DNA of 64,000 nucleotides from an uncultured Gemmatimonadales bacterium (lineage in GTDB: Bacteria; Gemmatimonadota; Gemmatimonadetes; Gemmatimonadales; GWC2-71-9). Of this stretch, positions 23,029 to 59,577 are shown piece by piece. The notes beneath the pieces were generated by a model, which was not told the DNA's origin, did no database searches, and was given only the letters and a program-made list of their open reading frames with translations. Each line of letters begins with the position of its first letter. Position 1 is the stretch's first letter. Location: positions 218,193 to 282,192 of the forward strand of contig CAWBZM010000003.1 of the NCBI GenBank assembly GCA_963793205.1, in the 5' to 3' direction. The position numbers were made by a program, and so were the translations under genes.

Positions 23029-24344
23029 ACAGCCTCCAGTACGGCGACGGTTTCCAGGTGAGCGGTCTGGGGGAAGAGGTCGAAGGGCTGGACCTCGGTC
23101 AGCCGATACGTCGCCCCACTTGATGACCCGGCGCCGCCGCAGAGCCGGCCCAGGTCACGGGAAAGGGTGGCTGGATCGCAGGAGATGTAGACCAGTCGGC
23201 GAGGCGGACGGGCCAGCAGGCCGCTCACCACAGCGGGGGCCATGCCGGTCCTCGGCGGGTTGGTGATCGCAAAGGTCGCCGGGTCGAGCGATCCGACCAC
23301 CCGTTCGACCAGGCCGGTGTGCAGTCGCGCCGGCCGAGTCGGCTGCCGCAGCAGGTCGTCCCCGGAGGCGGCGGCATCGCCGATGGCGGCAGCGGCCCAC
23401 TCCACGGCGCGACGATCGAGTTCAACACTCTCGACGGTCGCCCCCAGCGCCAGCAGTGCGCGGGTGGTGTCGCCGATCCCGCTATAGAGATCCCAGCCGT
23501 GGATGCCCGCGACCGGGCCCAGCCGACCGATCGCATACTCCCGGATCTGGTCACCGAAGGCGGGAAACACCTGCTCAAAGACGGTCGCCGGAGTCGTCTC
23601 CCGCCGTCCCGCCATGATGCGCGGGACACCGTCATCCGGATGCCACCAGATCGTGAGATTCGGCCGATCACACCGGGTCGCCAGCACCTTCGCCTCGGTC
23701 CAGGCAGCGGTCCCGGCCGCCTTGACCGTCAGGTGTTCGCCACCGGCGCGATCGACCCGCAGGATGATCTGCGTACGTATCGGAGGGCAGCAGGGTGAGG
23801 TGGGGGCGGACCGCGTCCCAGAGGTCGCGCACCTGCGGATCGGCGATCTCACAGCGTTCGAGCGGGAAGACTGCATCGGCTGGTCGACCGGGTGAAAGCC
23901 GGCGAAGCGCATCCCCGGTCCCGGGGCGAGCGTGATCCGGCTGCGGTAGTCCCACATCATCGGCGCGGCCACCAGTTCGGGCACCACCACATCCAGTTTG
24001 CCGATCCGCCGCAGGGTGTCGGCCAGCATGGAGCGCTTGGCGTCGCGTTGCACCGCGGGGTCGAGGTGCTGCAACTGACAGCCGCCGCAGTCGTGGCCGA
24101 CGTAGTGCCGGCAGCGCGGCGGCACGCGACTCGGGCCGCTCTCCTGCAGCATCCCGACCCGGCCGCGGGCGAAGCGGGCGTGCACGGCAACCTGGGCCAG
24201 CTCCACCAGGTCTCCCGGCGCCGTGCGTGGCACGAAGACGGTCCGGCCATCCGGCATCCGCCCGACGCCGTCCCCTCCGGTGGCGAGTCGCTCGATCCGA
24301 ACCGTAATTCCCGTTGAGCTGGCGGAGCGGGCGGGCACCGTCAT
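23025..24344 (-). pseudogene. TRAM/RumA-type 23S rRNA (uracil-C5)-methyltransferase, out of frame for about 110 nt as sequenced
   Basis: TRAM-like N-terminus, CGGCQLQH cluster, SAM-MTase C-terminus with [11 protein letters not shown]. The conserved stretch ADAVFPLERCEIADPQVRDLWDAVRPHLTLLPS is encoded in another frame between about 23885 and 23770. The ATG at 24344 overlaps the accC stop. Confidence 0.75.
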
Positions 24345-25843
24345 CGCAGCCCCTCGCGCCGACCGGTGTCCAGCCAACGCGACCGGGCCTCCGCGGCGTC
24401 GCTCACCACCGGACGCCGGGCCTGCCGGGCCTCGTCCTCGGCCAGTGCCGCGGCGACGGAGAGGGCGAGTCGAGCGGAGTCGGGCACGTCGGCCGTAAGC
24501 AGGTCGGGGCGGCGGTCGAGGAACTGGCTGTCGATCTCGGATCGCAGGAAGGCGTCGTCCGCGAGCAGACGCAGGTGGAACGCGATATTGGTCGCGACGC
24601 CCGCCACGACTAATTCCCGTAGCGCGCGGCGCATGCGCCCCACCGCCGCGTCCCTATCCACCCCCCAGGTGATGACCTTGCCGAGCAGGGAGTCGTAGTA
24701 GAGCGTGACGTCGTTCCCCGCCTCGAAGCCGCCATCCCAGCGCACCCCTGGTCCGGCCGGTGGGCGGAGATACTCGATGCGGCCGGTCGAGGGGAGAAAG
24801 CCGTTGCCGGGGTCCTCGCTCGTGATGCGGCATTCGAGCGCCCACCCGCGCGGAGTCAGCGGTCCCGCCGGCACCCGCATCGGCAGGCCCTGCGCAATCC
24901 GCAACTGTTCCCGCACCAGGTCGATCCCGTACACCAGTTCGGTCACGGGGTGCTCCACCTGGATCCGGGTGTTCATTTCGAGGAAGTAGAACGAGCCATC
25001 GGCCGCCAGCAGGAACTCGCAGGTGCCGGCGCCGCGATACTCGACCGCCGCCGCCGCCGCGACGGCCGCGGCGCCCATCCGCTCGCGCAGGTCGGCAGAT
25101 ACCGCGGCGGAGGGCGCTTCCTCGACCAGTTTCTGGTGCCGCCGCTGCACCGAGCATTCGCGCTCGCCGAGATGCACCGTCCGCTGGTGGTCCGCCAGGA
25201 CCTGGATCTCCACGTGCCGGGGCCGTTCGACGTACTTCTCGAGGTAGACGCTGGGATCACCGAAGGCCTTCTGGGCCTCGGACGCCGCCGTCTGCAGCGC
25301 CCCCGTCAGCTCTGCCTCGGCCCGGACCACCCGCATGCCCTTCCCGCCACCACCGGCCGCCGCCTTCACCAGGATGGGGTAGCCGATCTCCCGCGCCGCG
25401 ATCACGGCGGCAGCGGCATCGGTAATCGGCAGGATCAGGCCCGGGACGATCGGCACACCGGCCGCCTGCATCCGCCGGCGGGCTTCGGTCTTGTCGCCCA
25501 TGGCGGTGATCGCGGATGCCGGTGGACCAACGAAGACCAGCCCGGCGTCGACCACCGCCTGGGCGAAATGGGCCCGCTCGGCCAGGAAGCCATACCCGGG
25601 ATGGACCGCCCCGGCCCCGGTGGCACGCGCCGCCGCGAGCAGTTTATCCACCCGGAGATAGCTCTCGCCGGGAGGCGCGGCGCCGAGGTTCACCGCGTAG
25701 TCGGCCGCCCGCACATGGGGCGAGAGGCGATCGACCTCGGAATAGACCGCGACCGCCTCGAGCCCTTCCTCGTGGCAGGCGCGAATGATCCGCAGGGCGA
25801 TTTCACCCCGGTTGGCGACGAGGACTCTGGAAAACCGGGTCAT
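24341..25843 (-). CDS. accC: biotin carboxylase subunit of an acyl-CoA carboxylase
   Basis: ATP-grasp biotin carboxylase (VLVANRGEIALRI, GGGGKGMR, EMNTRIQVEHPVTE), about 50 aa longer than typical AccC. Confidence 0.92.
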   Translation of the reverse strand: MTRFSRVLVANRGEIALRIIRACHEEGLEAVAVYSEVDRLSPHVRAADYAVNLGAAPPGESYLRVDKLLAAARATGAGAVHPGYGFLAERAHFAQAVVDAGLVFVGPPASAITAMGDKTEARRRMQAAGVPIVPGLILPITDAAAAVIAAREIGYPILVKAAAGGGGKGMRVVRAEAELTGALQTAASEAQKAFGDPSVYLEKYVERPRHVEIQVLADHQRTVHLGERECSVQRRHQKLVEEAPSAAVSADLRERMGAAAVAAAAAVEYRGAGTCEFLLAADGSFYFLEMNTRIQVEHPVTELVYGIDLVREQLRIAQGLPMRVPAGPLTPRGWALECRITSEDPGNGFLPSTGRIEYLRPPAGPGVRWDGGFEAGNDVTLYYDSLLGKVITWGVDRDAAVGRMRRALRELVVAGVATNIAFHLRLLADDAFLRSEIDSQFLDRRPDLLTADVPDSARLALSVAAALAEDEARQARRPVVSDAAEARSRWLDTGRREGLR

Positions 25844-25861: not shown

Positions 25862-26839
25862 CTAGTTGCCGCAGGCGCCGCGGTTGCGGGCACCGAGGGG
25901 AAGGAGCAGCGAGGTGCAGAGTTGCGGATTGTAGCGGGCGGCCTGGACATAGAGGTCGGTGACTTCGCGGGCCACACCGCTGGGCTGGGTGCGCCAGGCA
26001 GTCGTCAGCTCGATGATGCTGAGCGGTTCGCTGGCATCGGTCGCGGCCGGCCCGCCCACCCGCACCAGCCGGATCGGTCGGAGGGTGATGTGCGGCGTGG
26101 TGGCGGAGTCGGTGCCGGGGCTGAGGCAGACGGGGCGGCGCGAGGCGGTGCGGGCGAGGGCCTCCGGCACCGTGCTGTTTGCGTCTACCTGGAGCGAGGT
26201 GGCCATCCGGGTGCGATATATCGAGTCCTGCCGATACAGGCCGGGGAGCAGCAGGAGCAGGTCACCCCGGTCGCGCCGTATGGTGAGCACACCCCAGACC
26301 CCAGCCGCCTCCAGGTCCGTACCCAGCACCAGCACCCCGCCGATAGGGCAGGAGTTGATCAGGTTGCCGCCCGCTTCCAGCAGGTGTGACGGGGGCAGCG
26401 CGCCGGGGGACCGCTGGTACTCGGCGGACCCGACCACCCAACCCGAGGTCTCCACCAGAAGTGAGAGGCGATCTACTTCGACCAGGGCTCGCAGCAGCTG
26501 TCCCGAATCGGTGGGAAGCCGGAGCGACTCATCCAGGGCGGTGGCGGAGAGGTCCAGGAAGAGCTGGCCGCCGGGATCGCCCCGATGCCCATTGCGATGC
26601 CAGGCGCGGCTGTCGAGCAGGTAGAAGTAACCCAACTGCATCCAGGCGGCGGCGTCATCGGGCGCCGTCGCGAGATACTGCCCAAGCAACTCGGTGGCCT
26701 CGGTGCGCGCGCCTTGCCGAGCCATCGCAGCGGCACGCGGCGCGACGGACGGATCGACGGCGGCTTGAGCAGCAAGAGCGCAGGGGAGCAGCGCGGCGCC
26801 GACGAACGCGAGGAGGGAGCGAGTGTGTGAAGTCACCAT
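25862..26839 (-). CDS. secreted hypothetical protein inside the carboxylase operon
   Basis: Signal-peptide-like LLAFVGAALLPCALAAQA after the ATG at 26839. I recognise no family. Confidence 0.6.
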   Translation of the reverse strand: MVTSHTRSLLAFVGAALLPCALAAQAAVDPSVAPRAAAMARQGARTEATELLGQYLATAPDDAAAWMQLGYFYLLDSRAWHRNGHRGDPGGQLFLDLSATALDESLRLPTDSGQLLRALVEVDRLSLLVETSGWVVGSAEYQRSPGALPPSHLLEAGGNLINSCPIGGVLVLGTDLEAAGVWGVLTIRRDRGDLLLLLPGLYRQDSIYRTRMATSLQVDANSTVPEALARTASRRPVCLSPGTDSATTPHITLRPIRLVRVGGPAATDASEPLSIIELTTAWRTQPSGVAREVTDLYVQAARYNPQLCTSLLLPLGARNRGACGN

Positions 26840-26992
26840 CGAGGCGGAAGTTATGGTTTGGGACGGGGTTGCGCTAGGGCGGCTCACCGGCCCGAAGATA
26901 TCGCCTGGGCGATTGGGCTGTTGGCCGAGAGGGGGTTTGAGCCCCGGGAACGTTGCGGCTTGGGCACCTAGAACGATGTGCCGCCGAGCCGC

Positions 26993-28546
26993 CTAGAGCG
27001 GAAGATTCCCGTGCTTCCGTGGCGGATTCCGGTCCCGCTTGGTCGCCAGGGTCCGCAGCCCCTCGATCAGCCGCAGCCGGGTATCGCGCGGGTCAATCAC
27101 GTCGTCCACGTACCCCCGCCCCGCCGCCATATAGGGATTGGCGAAGGTTTCGGTGTACTGGTCAATGCGGCGTGCCGCCTCTGCCTCATGATCCGGCGCC
27201 TGGTCAATTTCCTTTTTGAACAGGATCTCCACCGCTCCCTTGGGGCCCATGACCGCGATTTCGGCCGAGGGCCACGCCAGGTTGAGGTCCCCGCGAATGT
27301 GCTTCGAACTCATCACGTCATACGCCCCGCCGTATGCTTTGCGTGTGATCACGGTCAGCTTCGGGACTGTCGCCTCGCAATAGGCATAGAGCAGTTTTGC
27401 CCCGTGCTTGATGATTCCACCGTGCTCCTGGGCGACCCCCGGCAGGAAGCCGGGTACATCTACAAAGGTGACGACCGGAATATTGAAACAGTCACAGAAC
27501 CGGATGAACCGGGCGGCCTTGAGTGAGGCATTGATGTCGAGGACGCCGGCCAGTACCGCCGGCTGATTCGCCACGATCCCGACCGGGCGACCGCCCAGTC
27601 GCCCGAAGGTGGTGATGATGTTCCCGGCGTACTCGGTGTGGACTTCGAGGAGCGAATCGCGATCCATCACGAGGCGGATGACCTCGTGCATGTCATACGG
27701 TTTGCTGGGTGTGTCGGGCAGCAGGTCGAGCAGGCGTTCCTCCCGCCGATCCACCGGATCGTCCCCCTGGAGGATCGGGGGTTCCTCCAGATTGTTCGGC
27801 GGCAGATAGGCCATGAGGGCGCGAACCGCCGCGAGGCTCGCGGGCTCCGAGTCATGCACGAAATGCGAGACGCCACTGACGCCCGAGTGGGTATCGGCGC
27901 CACCCAGCTGGTCGAAGCTGACTTCCTCGTGAGTGACCGTCTTAACCACGTTGGGGCCGGTCACGAACATGTAGCTGACGCCCCGGACCATGAAGATGAA
28001 GTCGGTGATGGCCGGGCTGTACACCGCCCCACCGGCACAGGGGCCCAGGATGACGGAGATCTGCGGGACCACCCCGGAGGCCAGCGTGTTGCGGAGAAAG
28101 ATCTCGGCGTACCCGCCCAGCGAGGCCACCCCTTCCTGGATGCGGGCGCCGCCGGAGTCGTTGAGTCCGATGACCGGCGCGCCGTTTCGCAGGGCGAGAT
28201 CCATGACCTTACAGATCTTCTCCGCAAAGGTCTCCGACAAACTCCCGCCAAAGACGGTGAAGTCCTGCGAGAAGACGTAGACCAGCCGGCCGTCGATCCG
28301 GCCGTGACCGGTGACCACCCCATCGCCCAGATACTGCTGGTCCTGCAGACCGAAGTCGGTGCATCGGTGGGTCACAAAGCGATCGAGCTCGACGAAGCTG
28401 CCCGGGTCGAGCAGCAGATCGAGCCGCTCCCGGGCCGACAGCTTGCCCTTCTTGTGCTGCTGGGCAATCCGGTCAGGTCCCCCGCCCTGTTCGGCGAGTG
28501 CCTGCTTGTGGTGGAGCTGGTCGAGAAGTTCGCGAGGGGTTGGCAT
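26993..28546 (-). CDS. pccB: acyl-CoA carboxylase carboxyltransferase (propionyl-CoA carboxylase beta / methylmalonyl-CoA carboxyltransferase type)
   Basis: 517 aa, full-length PccB-like protein ([24 protein letters not shown], and others). Confidence 0.92.
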
Positions 28547-28563
28547 GGTTGGAGAAAATAGGC

Positions 28564-28745
28564 GGGTACGCGGGTACGCGGGTAGGCGGGTACGTGGGTA
28601 CGCGGGTACGTGGGTACGTGGGTACGTGGGTACGTGGGTACGCGGGTACGTGGGTACGTGGGTAGACTAAAAGCGAAGGGAGAGATCCGTGAGGACCTCC
28701 CCCTTCCTGCGTAGCTACCCGCGTACCAACCTACCCCCGTACCGC
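28564..28745. repeat. hairpin microsatellite element B (8-mer GGGTACGY)
   Basis: About 13 tandem GGGTACGY units at 28564-28665. The loop has its own stem GAAGGGAGAG/CTCCCCCTTC. Degenerate reverse-complement units at 28709-28745 run directly into the rpsA stop codon. Confidence 0.85.
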
Positions 28746-30452
28746 CTACTCCTCCGCCGGGCTCTCGTCGATCACGGGACGCACAGGCGGGATGATCGGC
28801 TCGTCGGGATATCCGATCACGGCCAGTACGATCCGGTGATGGATCGGGTCGACCTCGAGCACCTTGAGATCCACCGCCTGGCCTTCCTTCACGGCGTCGC
28901 CGGGGTTCTCGATGTTGGCGATCCCGAGCTGGGACATCGGCACGAAGCCTTCGATGTCGTTGCCCATGTCGACCACCACGCCCTTGTCCATCAGGCGGGC
29001 GACGCGGCCCTTCATCTCGGTGCCGATCGGGAAGGTCTCGCCGATCTTGAGCCACGGATCCTCTTCCGCCTGCTTGAGGCCGAGGGAGATCCGCTTGTTG
29101 TCGCCGTCGATGTTGAGGATGACGACGTTCACGCCGTCGCCCTTCTTCACCACTTCCGACGGATGCTGCACCCGCTTGGTCCACGACATGTCGGAGATGT
29201 GGATCAGGCCGTCGATGCCCGGCTCGATCTCCACGAAGGCGCCGAAGCTGGTCAGGTTGCGCACCTTGCCGCTGATGCGGGTGCCGACCGGGTACTTGAG
29301 CGGCAGCACGGTCCACGGATCCTGCTCGGTCTGCTTCATGCCGAGCGAGATCTTCTCTTCGCTCTCGTCGACCTTGAGGACCACCGCCTCGATGGTCTCG
29401 CCGATGGAGACGATCTTGGACGGATGGCGGACGTTGCGGGTCCAGCTCATCTCGCTGATGTGCACCAGGCCTTCGATCCCCGGCTCCAGCTCCACAAAGG
29501 CGCCGTAGTTGGTGATCGAGACGACCTTGCCCTGCACCCGGGTGCCGACCGGATACCGCTCGGCGACCTTCTGCCACGGGTACGGCTGCAGCTGCTTCAT
29601 GCCCAGGCTGATGCGCTCACGCTGCCAGTCGATGTCGAGGATCTTGACCTCGACCTCGCGGCCGATGCCGACCATCTCGGTCGGGTGCGACACGCGGCCG
29701 TACGACATGTCGGTGATGTGCAGCAGGCCGTCGACACCGCCGAGGTCGATGAACGCCCCGAAGTCGGTGATGTTCTTGACGATGCCCTTCCGCACCTGGC
29801 CCACCGCCAGCTCCTTCATCAGGTGCTCGCGCTTGTGGGCCCGCTCGTTCTCCAGGATCACGCGACGGCTGACGACAATGTTCCGCCGGCGCTTGTTCAG
29901 CTTGATGATCTTGAAGTCGTAGCTCTGGCCCAGCAGCTCGTCGATATTCGGCACCCGCCGCAGGGCGATCTGGCTGCCCGGCAGGAACGCGTCGACGCCC
30001 ATCAGGTTCACCACCACGCCACCCTTGATCTTCTTGACCAGGGTGCCCATGACCGGCTGGTCGCTCTCGTGCGCCAGCTTGATCTTCTCCCACACCCGCA
30101 TGAAGTCGGCCTTCTTCTTGGAGAGCACAACGGCGCCCTCCTGGTCCTCGAGATGCTCGAGGAACACTTCGACTTCATCGCCCGGCTGGGGCGGATCCTT
30201 GAACTCGTCCAGCGGAACCGATCCCTCGGACTTGAAACCGACGTCGAGGATGACGGCGCTCTCGGTGACGCGCAGTACCTTCGACTTGACGATCTCGCCC
30301 TCGACGATCTGGGACATCGTCCCTTCGTACATCGAGAGCATCTGCTCGTATTCGGCTTCGGAATAGTCCTCGTCATACAGATCCGCGCGGACCCGGAGGC
30401 CGGCGGACAGGGCGGGACGTTGCTCGATGGCGGTGGAGGTCTCAGCAGGCAC
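28746..30452 (-). CDS. rpsA: 30S ribosomal protein S1
   Basis: Six S1 domains. GTG at 30452 is preceded by AAGGA and preferred over the ORF-track start at 30716. Confidence 0.9.
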   Translation of the reverse strand: MPAETSTAIEQRPALSAGLRVRADLYDEDYSEAEYEQMLSMYEGTMSQIVEGEIVKSKVLRVTESAVILDVGFKSEGSVPLDEFKDPPQPGDEVEVFLEHLEDQEGAVVLSKKKADFMRVWEKIKLAHESDQPVMGTLVKKIKGGVVVNLMGVDAFLPGSQIALRRVPNIDELLGQSYDFKIIKLNKRRRNIVVSRRVILENERAHKREHLMKELAVGQVRKGIVKNITDFGAFIDLGGVDGLLHITDMSYGRVSHPTEMVGIGREVEVKILDIDWQRERISLGMKQLQPYPWQKVAERYPVGTRVQGKVVSITNYGAFVELEPGIEGLVHISEMSWTRNVRHPSKIVSIGETIEAVVLKVDESEEKISLGMKQTEQDPWTVLPLKYPVGTRISGKVRNLTSFGAFVEIEPGIDGLIHISDMSWTKRVQHPSEVVKKGDGVNVVILNIDGDNKRISLGLKQAEEDPWLKIGETFPIGTEMKGRVARLMDKGVVVDMGNDIEGFVPMSQLGIANIENPGDAVKEGQAVDLKVLEVDPIHHRIVLAVIGYPDEPIIPPVRPVIDESPAEE

Positions 30453-30567
30453 GTGGGAATCCTTCGTGGACCGCGCCGGCTCGGCCGCGGGCTGGGGTGA
30501 AATGGAACGGCTCCCGCGCCAGCCGAAGTGCCGGTGGGGAGCCTGAAAGAATAGCGCTGACAACGCC

Positions 30568-31251
30568 CTAGGACAAGCGGAGCCGGGGCACCCGTTCCCG
30601 CGCCAGGCGGACGATTTCGGCGACCTGGGCCTCAAAACTGAGCCCGGTGCCGTCCAGCGGGAGGGCATCGTCCGCGATCCGGAGGGGGGCCACGGCACGG
30701 CGGGAGTCGGCCTCATCCCGGAGGGCCAGCGCCGCCGCCTCCCGGTCCAGTACGGCCGGAGTCTCCCCCTCCCCCCGCTGAGCCAGCCGGCGTGACGCCC
30801 GGGTCCTGGGCGATGCAGTTAGAAACACCTTCAGGTCCGCCGCCGGGAAGACCACGGTCCCGATGTCCCGCCCATCCACCACCAGAGAATGGCCCGCCTC
30901 CGCCATGCCCCGGAGGCGCTGGTTCACCCAGTCCCTGACTGGCGGGAGGGCCGAAACGGCCGAGACCCGGGCGGTGACTTCGGGGGCGCGAATCTCCTGC
31001 TCCACCGGGGCGCCGTTGAGCCACACCGTGAAGCGGGTACCGTCGTGGTGCAGCGTCAGCCGATGGCTGTCGAGGGCGGGCAGCAGTGCGAGGGGATCGT
31101 CTGTCCCGGTCCGCAATGCCACGAGGGTGGCGCCGCGATACAGCGCCCCGGAGTCCAGATGGGTGAATCCCAGCGCGTCCGCCACCGCCTGGGCGGTGGA
31201 GGACTTGCCGCTTGCGGCCGGCCCGTCGATGGCGATGACATGTCCCGACAC
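30568..31251 (-). CDS. cmk: cytidylate kinase
   Basis: IAIDGPAASGKSS P-loop. GTG start. Confidence 0.9.
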   Translation of the reverse strand: MSGHVIAIDGPAASGKSSTAQAVADALGFTHLDSGALYRGATLVALRTGTDDPLALLPALDSHRLTLHHDGTRFTVWLNGAPVEQEIRAPEVTARVSAVSALPPVRDWVNQRLRGMAEAGHSLVVDGRDIGTVVFPAADLKVFLTASPRTRASRRLAQRGEGETPAVLDREAAALALRDEADSRRAVAPLRIADDALPLDGTGLSFEAQVAEIVRLARERVPRLRLS

Positions 31252-47683: not shown

Positions 47684-47817
47684 GGAGACGGGGGACGGGA
47701 ACGGGGAACAGGGAACAGGGAACGGGGAACGGGGAACGGGGAACGGGGAACGGCTCGGAGGTTGGGGGATTGCCGAGTCGCCACCCTGTCCCCGTTCCCC
47801 CTTCCCTGTTCCCCGCA
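47684..47817. repeat. hairpin microsatellite element C (GGGGAAC-type arms plus conserved core)
   Basis: About 10 G-rich heptamer units at 47684-47753 start directly after the xseA ATG complement. Loop stem CTCGG/CCGAG encloses AGGTTGGGGGATTG. C-rich arm at 47787-47817 ends 2 nt from the folD stop. Confidence 0.85.
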
Positions 47818-56087: not shown

Positions 56088-56324
56088 GGGGAACGGGGAA
56101 CGGGGGAGCCGCCCGGAGGTCAGGGGATTGCTTCGTCGGCCGCAAGCGGCCTCCTCGCAATGACAGCAGAACCGCCAGCCCGTTCCCTTTTCCCCGTTCC
56201 CCGTTCCCCGTTCCCCGTTCCCCGTTCCCTCTTCCCCGTTCCCCGTTCCCTTTTTCCCGTTCCCCGTTCCCTCTTCCCCGTCCCGTTCCCTTCCCGTTCC
56301 CCGTTCCCCGTTCCCTCTTCCCCG
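56088..56324. repeat. hairpin microsatellite element D (GGGGAAC-type, strongly asymmetric arms, conserved core)
   Basis: About 3 GGGGAAC units at 56088-56106. A 72 nt structured loop contains CCGGAGGTCAGGGGATTGC. About 21 CCCGTTC-type units at 56179-56324 run directly into the MBL hydrolase stop codon. Confidence 0.88.
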
Positions 56325-57235
56325 TTACCCGGCCTTGGCCACCACCTCGGCCAGCCCGATCCCCTTCCCCTCCGCCACCACCCGCCCCATCGCGACCTCG
56401 GGGTCATGCTCGAAAATGAACCGCCAGCCCCCGCGAACCGCCTCGGCCAGCAGTGTCCGCTTCGTTTCCAGGGTCCGGAGCGGCTCCAGGTCGTAGCCCA
56501 TGATGTAGGGCAGCGGCAGGTGGGCCGAGGTTGGGATGATGTCGCCCAGAAACACCGCGGTCTCGCCGCCACTGCGGACGACGATGCTCTGGTGCCAGGG
56601 CACGTGCCCCGGGGTCATCATCGCCGAGATGCCCGGCAGAATTTCGCCCGGCCCATCAAGCAGCTTCCACTTCCCGGCGGCCGCGATCGGCTCGAAGTTG
56701 GGCGGCAGATAGCTGGCCCGGGTCCGCTCATTGGTATGGCGGGCGAACTCGAGCTCGTTCTGCTGCACGACGTAGGTGGCGTTGGCAAACGCCGGCGAGG
56801 GTCCAGGGTCGAGTCAGCGGCTGCGCGTCGGCTCGGCGGCTCGGCGGCCACCGTGTTCCCCCCGGCATGATCAAAGTGCAGGTGGGTGTTGATCACCTAT
56901 CGGACGTCATCGGGCTGATGCCCCGCCTCCCGAATGGCGTCCTCCAGCTGGGTCGGCCCGGGAGCGCCGCCATTCCTGACGCCGTAGATCTGGAGGAACT
57001 TCTCGTCCTCCTTGTTGCCCAGACCGGTATCGACCAGGACCAGCCCATCCGGATGCTCGATCAGCAGGCAGCGCATCGCGAGCGGAATGCGGTTCTTCTC
57101 ATCCGGCGCCATCCGCCTGGACCAGAGCGGCTTGGGGACGACGCCGAACATGGCGCCGCCATCGAGCCGCTGAGCGCCTCCTTCCAGGAGGTGGCAGCGG
57201 AGTGCGCCGAGCTGAAAGGTCCGAATCAGAGCCAT
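56325..57235 (-). pseudogene. MBL-fold metallo-hydrolase, in-frame TAG plus frameshift as sequenced
   Basis: N-terminal 112 aa ORF ends DDVR-TAG and continues in the same frame as VINTHLHFDHAGGNT. A frameshift between about 56770 and 56850 leads to the C-terminal ORF (FANATYVVQQNELEF...TPGHVPWHQ). Confidence 0.8.
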
Positions 57236-59383: not shown

Positions 59384-59577
59384 CGCAGATTACACATCGT
59401 CCGCAGATGGCGCAGATGACGCAGATGAGCGCAGATGAGCGATCAGATGAGCGCAGATGACGCAGATGACGCAGATGACGCAGATGACACAGATGGCGCA
59501 GATGACGCAGATGGCGCAGATCGCGCAGACTGAAGCTAGATGGCGCAGATTAGTCTGCGCCATCTGCGTCATCTGTG
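59384..59577. repeat. hairpin microsatellite element E (9-mer CGCAGATGR)
   Basis: About 15 tandem CGCAGATGR units. Perfect 12 bp terminal hairpin AGATGGCGCAGA-TTAG-TCTGCGCCATCT at 59538-59565, plus a further inverted unit. Ends 4 nt from the rex stop. Confidence 0.85.

Follow-up and report, generated by a model that had tools for sequence, protein, structure and literature searches.

A terminator-like hairpin, a -10-like hexamer and species-specific octamer arms between rpsA and a carboxylase operon in a Gemmatimonadales genome

What occupies the space between a ribosomal protein gene and a metabolic operon when that space appears to consist of a short tandem repeat? The question is raised by a locus in a 64,000-nucleotide stretch of DNA from an uncultured Gemmatimonadales bacterium (GTDB lineage Gemmatimonadales, GWC2-71-9; assembly GCA_963793205.1, contig CAWBZM010000003.1, forward-strand positions 218,193 to 282,192), referred to below as the window, whose numbering is used unless another contig is named. 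In this window rpsA and the first gene of a carboxylase operon, both on the minus strand, are separated by 199 nt that include an array of the octamer GGGTACGY. The original prediction held that the spacer is entirely repeat DNA which could act as an insulator, a processing site or a copy-number-tunable attenuator. Such a description is too simple, as a terminator-like hairpin with a U-tract and a -10-like hexamer are also present and neither of them is repeat. The explanation that we favour, and that we consider probable, is that terminator and promoter are old conserved signals that have become joined by young repeat arms and that the arms, if active, strengthen the insulation of one gene from the other. 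The genome, labelled G000, is a 4.0-Mb, 67% GC assembly in 8 contigs of a soil bacterium.

Anatomy of the gap

Read along the transcribed strand, the gap opens after the TAG of rpsA with a short G-rich arm, continues through a hairpin with its U-tract and a long C-rich arm, and closes with a -10 box ahead of the ATG of the carboxyltransferase gene. The upstream gene (28746-30716, stop TAG at 28748-28746) encodes ribosomal protein S1, of 656 aa, with six S1 domains (PF00575, E=7.8e-95), and the downstream gene (26993-28546) encodes a pccB-like carboxyltransferase of 517 aa (PF01039, E=1e-195).

The long arm, distal to rpsA, spans 28564-28664, its units reading RCGTACCC on the minus strand and GGGTACGY on the plus strand, and is the sole array found there by Tandem Repeats Finder (TRF), with a period of 8, 12.6 copies, 92% matches and a score of 160. 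The array of some 13 units that had been predicted is therefore real, the precise count being 12 full units, of which GGGTAGGC is one, plus a degenerate thirteenth, GGGTAGAC. The alternation of C and T claimed for the eighth position fared less well, since a unit-by-unit reading does find C or T there but in no regular alternation, the order being GGGTACGC, GGGTACGC, GGGTAGGC, GGGTACGT, GGGTACGC, four copies of GGGTACGT, GGGTACGC, two copies of GGGTACGT and finally GGGTAGAC. As sense RNA the arm is 51% C and 16% G. It lies outside both open reading frames (ORFs), its near end 3 nt upstream of the -10 box and its body extending 100 nt further up, and a decayed coding repeat is ruled out by the 8-nt unit, just as had been argued. 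A CRISPR is ruled out as well, there being no unique spacers.

The proximal arm (28707-28745, minus strand) is made up of ~4 degenerate octamer units, GCGGTACG GGGGTAGG TTGGTACG CGGGTAGC TACGCAG, and begins at the base after the rpsA TAG, so that the inverted units do abut the stop codon as predicted and form a hairpin with units of the array. In the predicted fold this pairing is limited to the first ~4 distal units, leaving an unpaired remainder up to the ATG of ~84 nt that is 51% C and 14% G. The region as a whole folds with -107.9 kcal/mol, as against -74.7 +/- 4.6 for shuffled sequences (z = -7.2). A scan of the region with Rfam 15 returned no match at the gathering score, and its sub-threshold hits were hairpin-like ones to eukaryotic miRNA precursors only.

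Enclosed by the two arms is the core hairpin, GAAGGGGGAGGUCC-UCAC-GGAUCUCUCCCUUC (28675-28706, minus strand), seen in a pattern scan and in the fold. The pattern and consensus scan called a terminator-like site on the minus strand and none on the plus strand, with 14 pairs, a 4-nt loop and the tail GCTTTTAGTC (also given as GCUUUUAG); the short U-tract itself, GCUUUUAGUC, occupies 28665-28674 in both scan and fold. On the minus-strand RNA the stem is thus longer than the 10 bp originally assigned to it, 14 pairs of which 8 are G-C and two are G.U, and it begins 39 nt past the rpsA stop (28706 to 28675). Because of the two G.U pairs the hairpin is steadier as sense RNA (-26.5 kcal/mol, z = -4.95) than as antisense RNA (-19.6 kcal/mol), a difference of 6.9 kcal/mol.

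A strong hairpin, of -30 to -44 kcal/mol, lies 15-80 nt past the rpsA stop in 11 of the 11 genus relatives that could be aligned over this region, and in five of them (G006, G009, G010, G011 and G014) the 10 nt that follow it contain 5-7 T immediately after the stem. In the closest relative, G011, which shares 92% DNA identity in rpsA, the core hairpin is similar in sequence and looks homologous to the present one. Like an intrinsic terminator, the structure combines a GC-rich stem-loop and a U-tract a few tens of bases past a highly expressed gene, is strand-specific through its G.U pairs and recurs at the same position in relatives; it differs from the usual form in its short U-tract of 4 U, in the ~30 bp repeat-built stem that encloses it and in the ~80 nt of C-rich repeat that follow. 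The core hairpin is thus likely the intrinsic terminator of rpsA, at which its transcripts would end.

On the other side of the distal arm stand the 17 nt (28547-28563, GCCTATTTTCTCCAACC) that separate it from the carboxyltransferase ATG. Both the length of this spacer and its want of a Shine-Dalgarno sequence had been noted correctly; nothing like GGAGG occurs in it. What it does contain is a TATTTT hexamer at 28560-28555, 8 nt ahead of the ATG on the minus strand. Nearly all of the Gemmatimonadales orthologs that were inspected, whose upstream genes differ, have a hexamer of the TAnnTT type 5-9 nt ahead of the ATG, and seven genus relatives have one at 6-8 nt, the versions found at 5-9 nt being TATCTT, TACATT, TAGCTT, TACTTT, TATTTT, TTACCT, TACCTT and TATTTG. 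The start codon and the MPTP N-terminus of the protein are kept in relatives.

The hexamer belongs to a pattern that is common in G000, where start codons, by our own gene calls, include a class with GGAG-type motifs 9-11 nt upstream and another with TAnnnT 11-15 nt upstream. The second arrangement is found at 131 of 1982 starts, compared to a background of ~5 per position, and shows a TT(G/A)(A/C)C signal (TTGAC/TTACC) 17 nt further up, so that the class reads as an ordinary -35/-10 promoter set such that transcription would begin at the ATG. In the relatives G006, G014 and G018 a TTACCC/TTACCG hexamer stands 17-18 nt above the -10 box of the carboxyltransferase gene. The CTACCC of the variant unit GCCTACCC (28580-28587, minus strand) resembles it, at a spacing of 19 nt from the -10, and is possibly a remnant of the ancestral -35; the array would then seem to have overgrown the old -35 region. 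A scan of the region with a sigma-70 consensus called no promoter, and it is the comparative data on which the -10 assignment is based. They argue for a leaderless-type promoter belonging to the carboxylase operon itself, and the missing Shine-Dalgarno sequence would reflect a leaderless-type start and not the presence of the array. An insulator, as had been suggested for the spacer, is therefore an apt term in the ordinary sense only, that of a terminator with an independent promoter behind it.

Arrays in this position are not peculiar to the carboxyltransferase gene. In G000 there are 24 arrays read on the C-rich strand and followed within 70 nt by TAnnnT-N5-9-ATG/GTG, versus 9 read on the G-rich strand, and therefore the arrangement recurs; about half of the 24 are no more than 15 nt from the -10 box. 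Downstream of the carboxyltransferase gene the operon, still on the minus strand, continues with a 341-aa ORF that has no Pfam match (25862-26887) and with a biotin carboxylase gene (24341-25843).

Array hairpins across the genome and their turnover

TRF detected 455 arrays in G000, of which 237 are intergenic with periods of 7, 8, 9, 13, 14 or 26 nt, the class considered here, and group into 179 loci. Although the genome is ~85% coding, intergenic positions hold 77 of the 81 heptamer arrays, 49 of the 60 octamer arrays and 87 of the 93 13-mer arrays. The loci cluster at gene 3' ends, arrays being present in 73 of 258 convergent gaps (28%), 9% of same-direction gaps and 19 of 431 divergent gaps (4%), and the ~180 gene boundaries that they flank are unrelated, mostly between housekeeping genes. 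The main families are GGGGAAC/GGGAACA, GGGTACGY (33 arrays), GCGGGTGAGAACR (~90 arrays of up to 40 units), ACGAGTC and CGGTCRGG. The octamer of the rpsA locus is present at about 30 loci, and two consecutive copies of it occur 99 times in the genome, as compared with 0 for a control pattern read backwards.

A single polarity runs through these families. On both strands the G-rich arm precedes the C-rich arm, at 47 two-armed loci against 0 of the opposite order and at 59 against 5 single arrays with a degenerate partner, for a total of 106:5. GC skew on the sense strand at array loci is correspondingly +0.36 after stops and reaches -0.37 before starts. We tested for a general switch from G to C at all gene ends and found it absent from gaps without arrays, where the skew is ~0 after stops and weakly negative before starts, so that the polarity belongs to the arrays. 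An assembly artefact would not yield a gene-relative polarity over ~180 loci and is ruled out on this ground. The folding energies of sense and antisense RNA were compared at 111 same-direction loci and the antisense was the steadier in 69; since G.U pairs allow long G-rich arms to fold on themselves, this test is confounded and nothing is concluded from it.

The cores that separate the arms vary. Many 13-mer loci have loops of 2-14 nt, and octamer loci have cores unrelated to one another, some of them textbook bidirectional terminators. The 13-mer GCGGGTGAGAACR arrays reach 36-40 units per arm with loops of 2-26 nt (G000:C2:707811-708439 and G000:C4:523907-524539, outside the window), and such arms could pair into hairpins several hundred base pairs long in the gaps that separate convergent genes. 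The window itself contains four further array hairpins, three of the GGGGAAC type and one built from CGCAGATGR, at 136-217, 47688-47814, 56088-56331 and 59402-59575, all with the G-rich arm first. Unlike the octamer loci, GGGGAAC-type hairpins share a core of ~60 nt, CTCGGAGGTCGGGGGATTGCTTCGTCGGCCGCAAGCGGCCTCCTCGCAATGAC, which is found in the window at 47754-47783 and 56106-56178 and at least at 6 other loci of G000 (for example C4:9976-10137 and C4:185479-185787), and this family looks more like a copied element than the octamer loci do.

Turnover among relatives was counted over 38 congeners, that is, other species of the genus, and 200 genomes of the family. Two GGGTACGY units in a row are found in 0 of the 38 congeners as against 99 times in G000, and three in only 1 of the 200 family genomes; short-read metagenome-assembled genomes (MAGs) may under-report repeats, and the octamer is missing from well-assembled congeners too. 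The unit is private to the species of G000. Other units are patchy within the genus and their counts very uneven, three copies of GGGGAAC being present in 16 of the 38 and three of CGGTCRGG in 15, and in a 400-kb sample of the long-read congener G018 the 16 arrays of period 7-8 are built from other units still, octamers of its own among them. At the rpsA site G011 has the stop, a short G arm, the core hairpin and then a ten-unit array of a different octamer, YCYGACCG, and the 10 other congeners have no array there. Because the hairpin recurs in relatives, and because G011 combines a similar core with another unit, the hairpin is old and the arms are young and replaceable.

A similar build from yet another unit was seen in G015, ~120-70 nt before the carboxyltransferase ATG (L087:3533), where the terminator of the upstream gene is an octamer hairpin made of (ATCRGGCG)x4, a loop, inverted units and a T-tract. 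In most congeners (L083-L091) the rpsA terminator and the carboxyltransferase gene are separated by ~1.45 kb that include a gene opening with a prepilin-type motif (GMTxIELL). This segment is missing from G000 and G004, so that rpsA and the carboxylase operon are adjacent in some species only. An exact-protein look-up for other assemblies of the same species found none, and the core-hairpin pattern had no match in metagenome contigs; 22 such contigs carry (GGGTACGT)x3 and none of them matches G000.

Comparison with known repeats

REP, BIME and REPIN elements are abundant extragenic hairpin repeats, found at gene 3' ends and in convergent gaps, for which roles in termination and mRNA stability have been proposed, and REPs are single imperfect palindromes of 20-40 nt with a GTAG head. 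The present arrays resemble them in being extragenic hairpin repeats at gene 3' ends and in convergent gaps and differ from them in their tandem 8-nt units. The only Y1_Tnp (IS200/RAYT-like) gene of G000 has three REP-like copies of GTCTGTAGGCCGAGAGGGGGCTTCAGCCCCCGG behind it (L143:1492-1866 and ~L143:2140-2360; G000:C4:994008-994900, outside the window). Gene and copies form a classical RAYT-REP pair whose sequence has no relation to that of the tandem arrays, and an assignment of the arrays to REP or REPIN elements was rejected.

The STRR heptamers of cyanobacteria are short-unit intergenic tandem arrays as well. Long simple sequence repeats (SSRs) with units of 5-11 nt have been described in large, GC-rich genomes of non-pathogens by Mrazek and co-workers, as cited in Rehm et al. 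(2015, PLoS One, PMC4692102). Both are, like the present arrays, short-unit intergenic arrays of free-living bacteria with a supposed origin in slippage and no tie to phase variation, and the surveys, as cited there, describe abundance and not hairpin build, a G-first rule or a relation to terminators and promoters.

Among the closest known counterparts are the G-rich heptamers GGGAATC of Xanthomonas and GGGGAYT of Nostoc (PMC4692102). These are present in hundreds of copies per genome, ~90% of them intergenic and few between divergent genes, and their G-rich strand coincides with the coding strand within 50 bp after a stop and with the non-coding strand directly ahead of ORFs; some arrays are 'tandemly inverted', close relatives differ in copy number and in sequence, and no function and no link to gene function were found (PMC4692102). 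The rpsA array appears to match them as a further case of such polar repeats: near-perfect head-to-tail units whose length is not a multiple of three (12.6 copies of 8 nt here), many intergenic copies with few in divergent gaps, G-rich sequence after a stop and C-rich sense sequence before an ATG. It differs in being an octamer private to one Gemmatimonadales species, in the company of several unrelated families of 7, 8, 9 and 13 nt that share its placement and reach 40 units, and in arms set around a conserved terminator-like hairpin and next to a leaderless-type -10, relations not analysed in PMC4692102. A more distant parallel is provided by the TAACTGA heptamers of Beggiatoaceae, Cyanobacteria and Bacteroidetes, intergenic direct repeats with one inverted set reported, which have been proposed as binding sites of a translational regulator (MacGregor 2015, PMC4679880). 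They have a similarly patchy phylogenetic distribution but are AT-rich and nearly all direct, whereas the present arrays consist of GC-rich, inverted units associated with gene 3' ends.

Weighing the explanations

According to the explanation that we favour, transcription of rpsA would mostly stop at the core hairpin and the carboxylase operon would start from its own promoter, at the ATG or within a base or two of it. The arms would be young, species-specific simple-sequence DNA grown by slippage around and between terminator and promoter, with template switching across the hairpin having probably copied one arm to the other side. In read-through RNA the first C-rich units would pair with the G-rich arm to give a stem of ~30 bp enclosing the terminator, which could serve as a pause site or as a substrate of the RNase III type, and the remaining ~80 nt, C-rich, G-poor and unpaired, would have the composition on which Rho loads. 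G000 encodes a Rho RNA-binding domain. Its two adjacent Rho_RNA_bind matches lie in different frames (L099, G000:C1:40964-41186), a split that may be a long-read indel error in the rho gene and that would fit the 83% completeness of the 8-contig assembly.

Several points weigh against this account. The U-tract after the core hairpin is short (4 U), and the strength of the carboxylase promoter is uncertain because the -35 position is filled by repeat units and the best hexamer there, CTACCC, has a 19-nt spacer. Local slippage alone is insufficient to explain an octamer at ~30 loci with unrelated cores, and the G-first rule has no demonstrated cause. The sense-C arm is the longer in 65 same-direction gaps and the shorter in 47 (p=0.11), which lends weak support to a role as a Rho tail. 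Exact unit counts may carry assembly error, G000 being an 83%-complete MAG in 8 contigs, and the genome-wide statistics are built on our own codon-usage gene caller (83-86% coding over the six large contigs) and not on a curated annotation.

A serious rival, which we rate as possible though on balance unlikely, is that the arms are neutral or selfish simple-sequence DNA without function, piling up in the unconstrained DNA between terminator and promoter or between convergent gene ends, with polarity and symmetry arising from mutation through slippage and template switching at hairpins. Fast turnover of units between species, G011 having another octamer at this very site, is what this would produce, as are arm lengths that vary from 2 to 40 units, the lack of a link to gene function both here and in Rehm et al., and the avoidance of divergent promoter gaps. 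A polarity of 106:5 across unrelated units is hard to reach in this way unless selection or some directional mechanism is at work, arrays take up ~1% of a compact genome, and the arms adjoin conserved signals without destroying them. The opposite idea is that the arrays are not passive: the genus would keep a small and quickly changing set of units, and an active, directional process would place them at gene boundaries, where each hairpin serves both neighbours. The G-first hairpin would lengthen the terminator of the upstream gene and add a C-rich tail for Rho loading, and would provide the downstream gene with the C-rich upstream or -35 region of a leaderless promoter; the agent of this placement may be strand switching templated by hairpins at terminators, or an enzyme as yet unrecognised. 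Such a process is compatible with the 106:5 polarity, with the same architecture made from another octamer at the rpsA site of G011 and with the roughly dozen arrays within 15 nt of a -10; these features do not demonstrate it, and we regard it as doubtful. We hold it improbable that the array acts as a G-quadruplex (G4) or i-motif, in which the (GGGN5)n strand, antisense to both genes, would fold in DNA or in an antisense RNA and block polymerases or recruit proteins. Its 13 G3 tracts with 5-nt loops accord with the usual sequence criterion, and Rehm et al. did see G4 formation by related repeats in vitro and a surplus of transcript ends at G4-capable repeats. In the sense RNA of rpsA and pccB, however, the long arm is the C-rich strand and cannot form G4, hairpin pairing would compete with quadruplex folding, and families with the same placement and polarity, CGCAGATGR, ACGAGTC and the 13-mer with one GGG per 13 nt, are not G4-capable.

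The copy-number-tunable attenuator of the original prediction, in which gain or loss of units would alter promoter geometry or read-through and give heritable expression variants of the carboxylase operon, has very little in its favour in our estimate. Tandem octamers are prone to slippage, this array abuts the -10 box and fills the -35 region, and arm length is free to vary, the G arm being the longer at 8 and the C arm at 19 of the 27 same-direction octamer loci. Contingency loci, on the other hand, have their repeats within an ORF or confined between -35 and -10, and the present array does neither: because it runs from upstream of the -10 box through the -35 position it is no discrete tract confined to the spacer, and because its phase is fixed at 8 nt the gain or loss of whole units should leave the sequence facing the -10 unchanged. 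With the phase relative to the -10 unaltered and the array outside both ORFs, a switch is unlikely; the neighbours are housekeeping genes, like arrays flank ~180 unrelated gene boundaries, and phase variation was judged unlikely by Rehm et al. for their repeats. We find it equally hard to credit that the locus is a mobile element, a miniature inverted-repeat transposable element (MITE) or REPIN-like insertion spread by a transposase with the octamer arrays as its terminal inverted repeats. One could point to the ~30 loci of a species-private unit, to the patchy, burst-like occurrence of other families, to the ~60-nt core common to GGGGAAC-type loci at no fewer than 6 sites and to the one Y1 (RAYT-like) transposase gene of G000. 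Octamer loci, though, have locus-specific cores and arms of unequal length, no target-site duplication was seen at the array ends, the present core is the positional counterpart of the hairpin that follows rpsA in relatives and looks homologous to that of G011, and the REP-like copies beside the Y1 gene differ in sequence. A MITE was rejected for the unrelated cores, the lack of a duplication at the array ends and the positional match of the core to the hairpin of relatives.

For annotation, the explanation that joins old signals by young arms implies that rpsA and the carboxylase operon would be separate transcription units linked by filler repeat, and that in the Gemmatimonadales lineage a missing Shine-Dalgarno sequence can signal a leaderless start. 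Arrays of this kind matter for the quality of MAGs because they break short-read assemblies. The Gemmatimonadales join Xanthomonas and Nostoc as hosts of polar, hairpin-forming arrays of short units, and with several unit families in one genome, one family private to a species and one site rebuilt with another unit, this genus is well suited to the question of why such repeats always show G-rich sequence after stops and C-rich sequence before starts, and whether they contribute to termination or promoter insulation.

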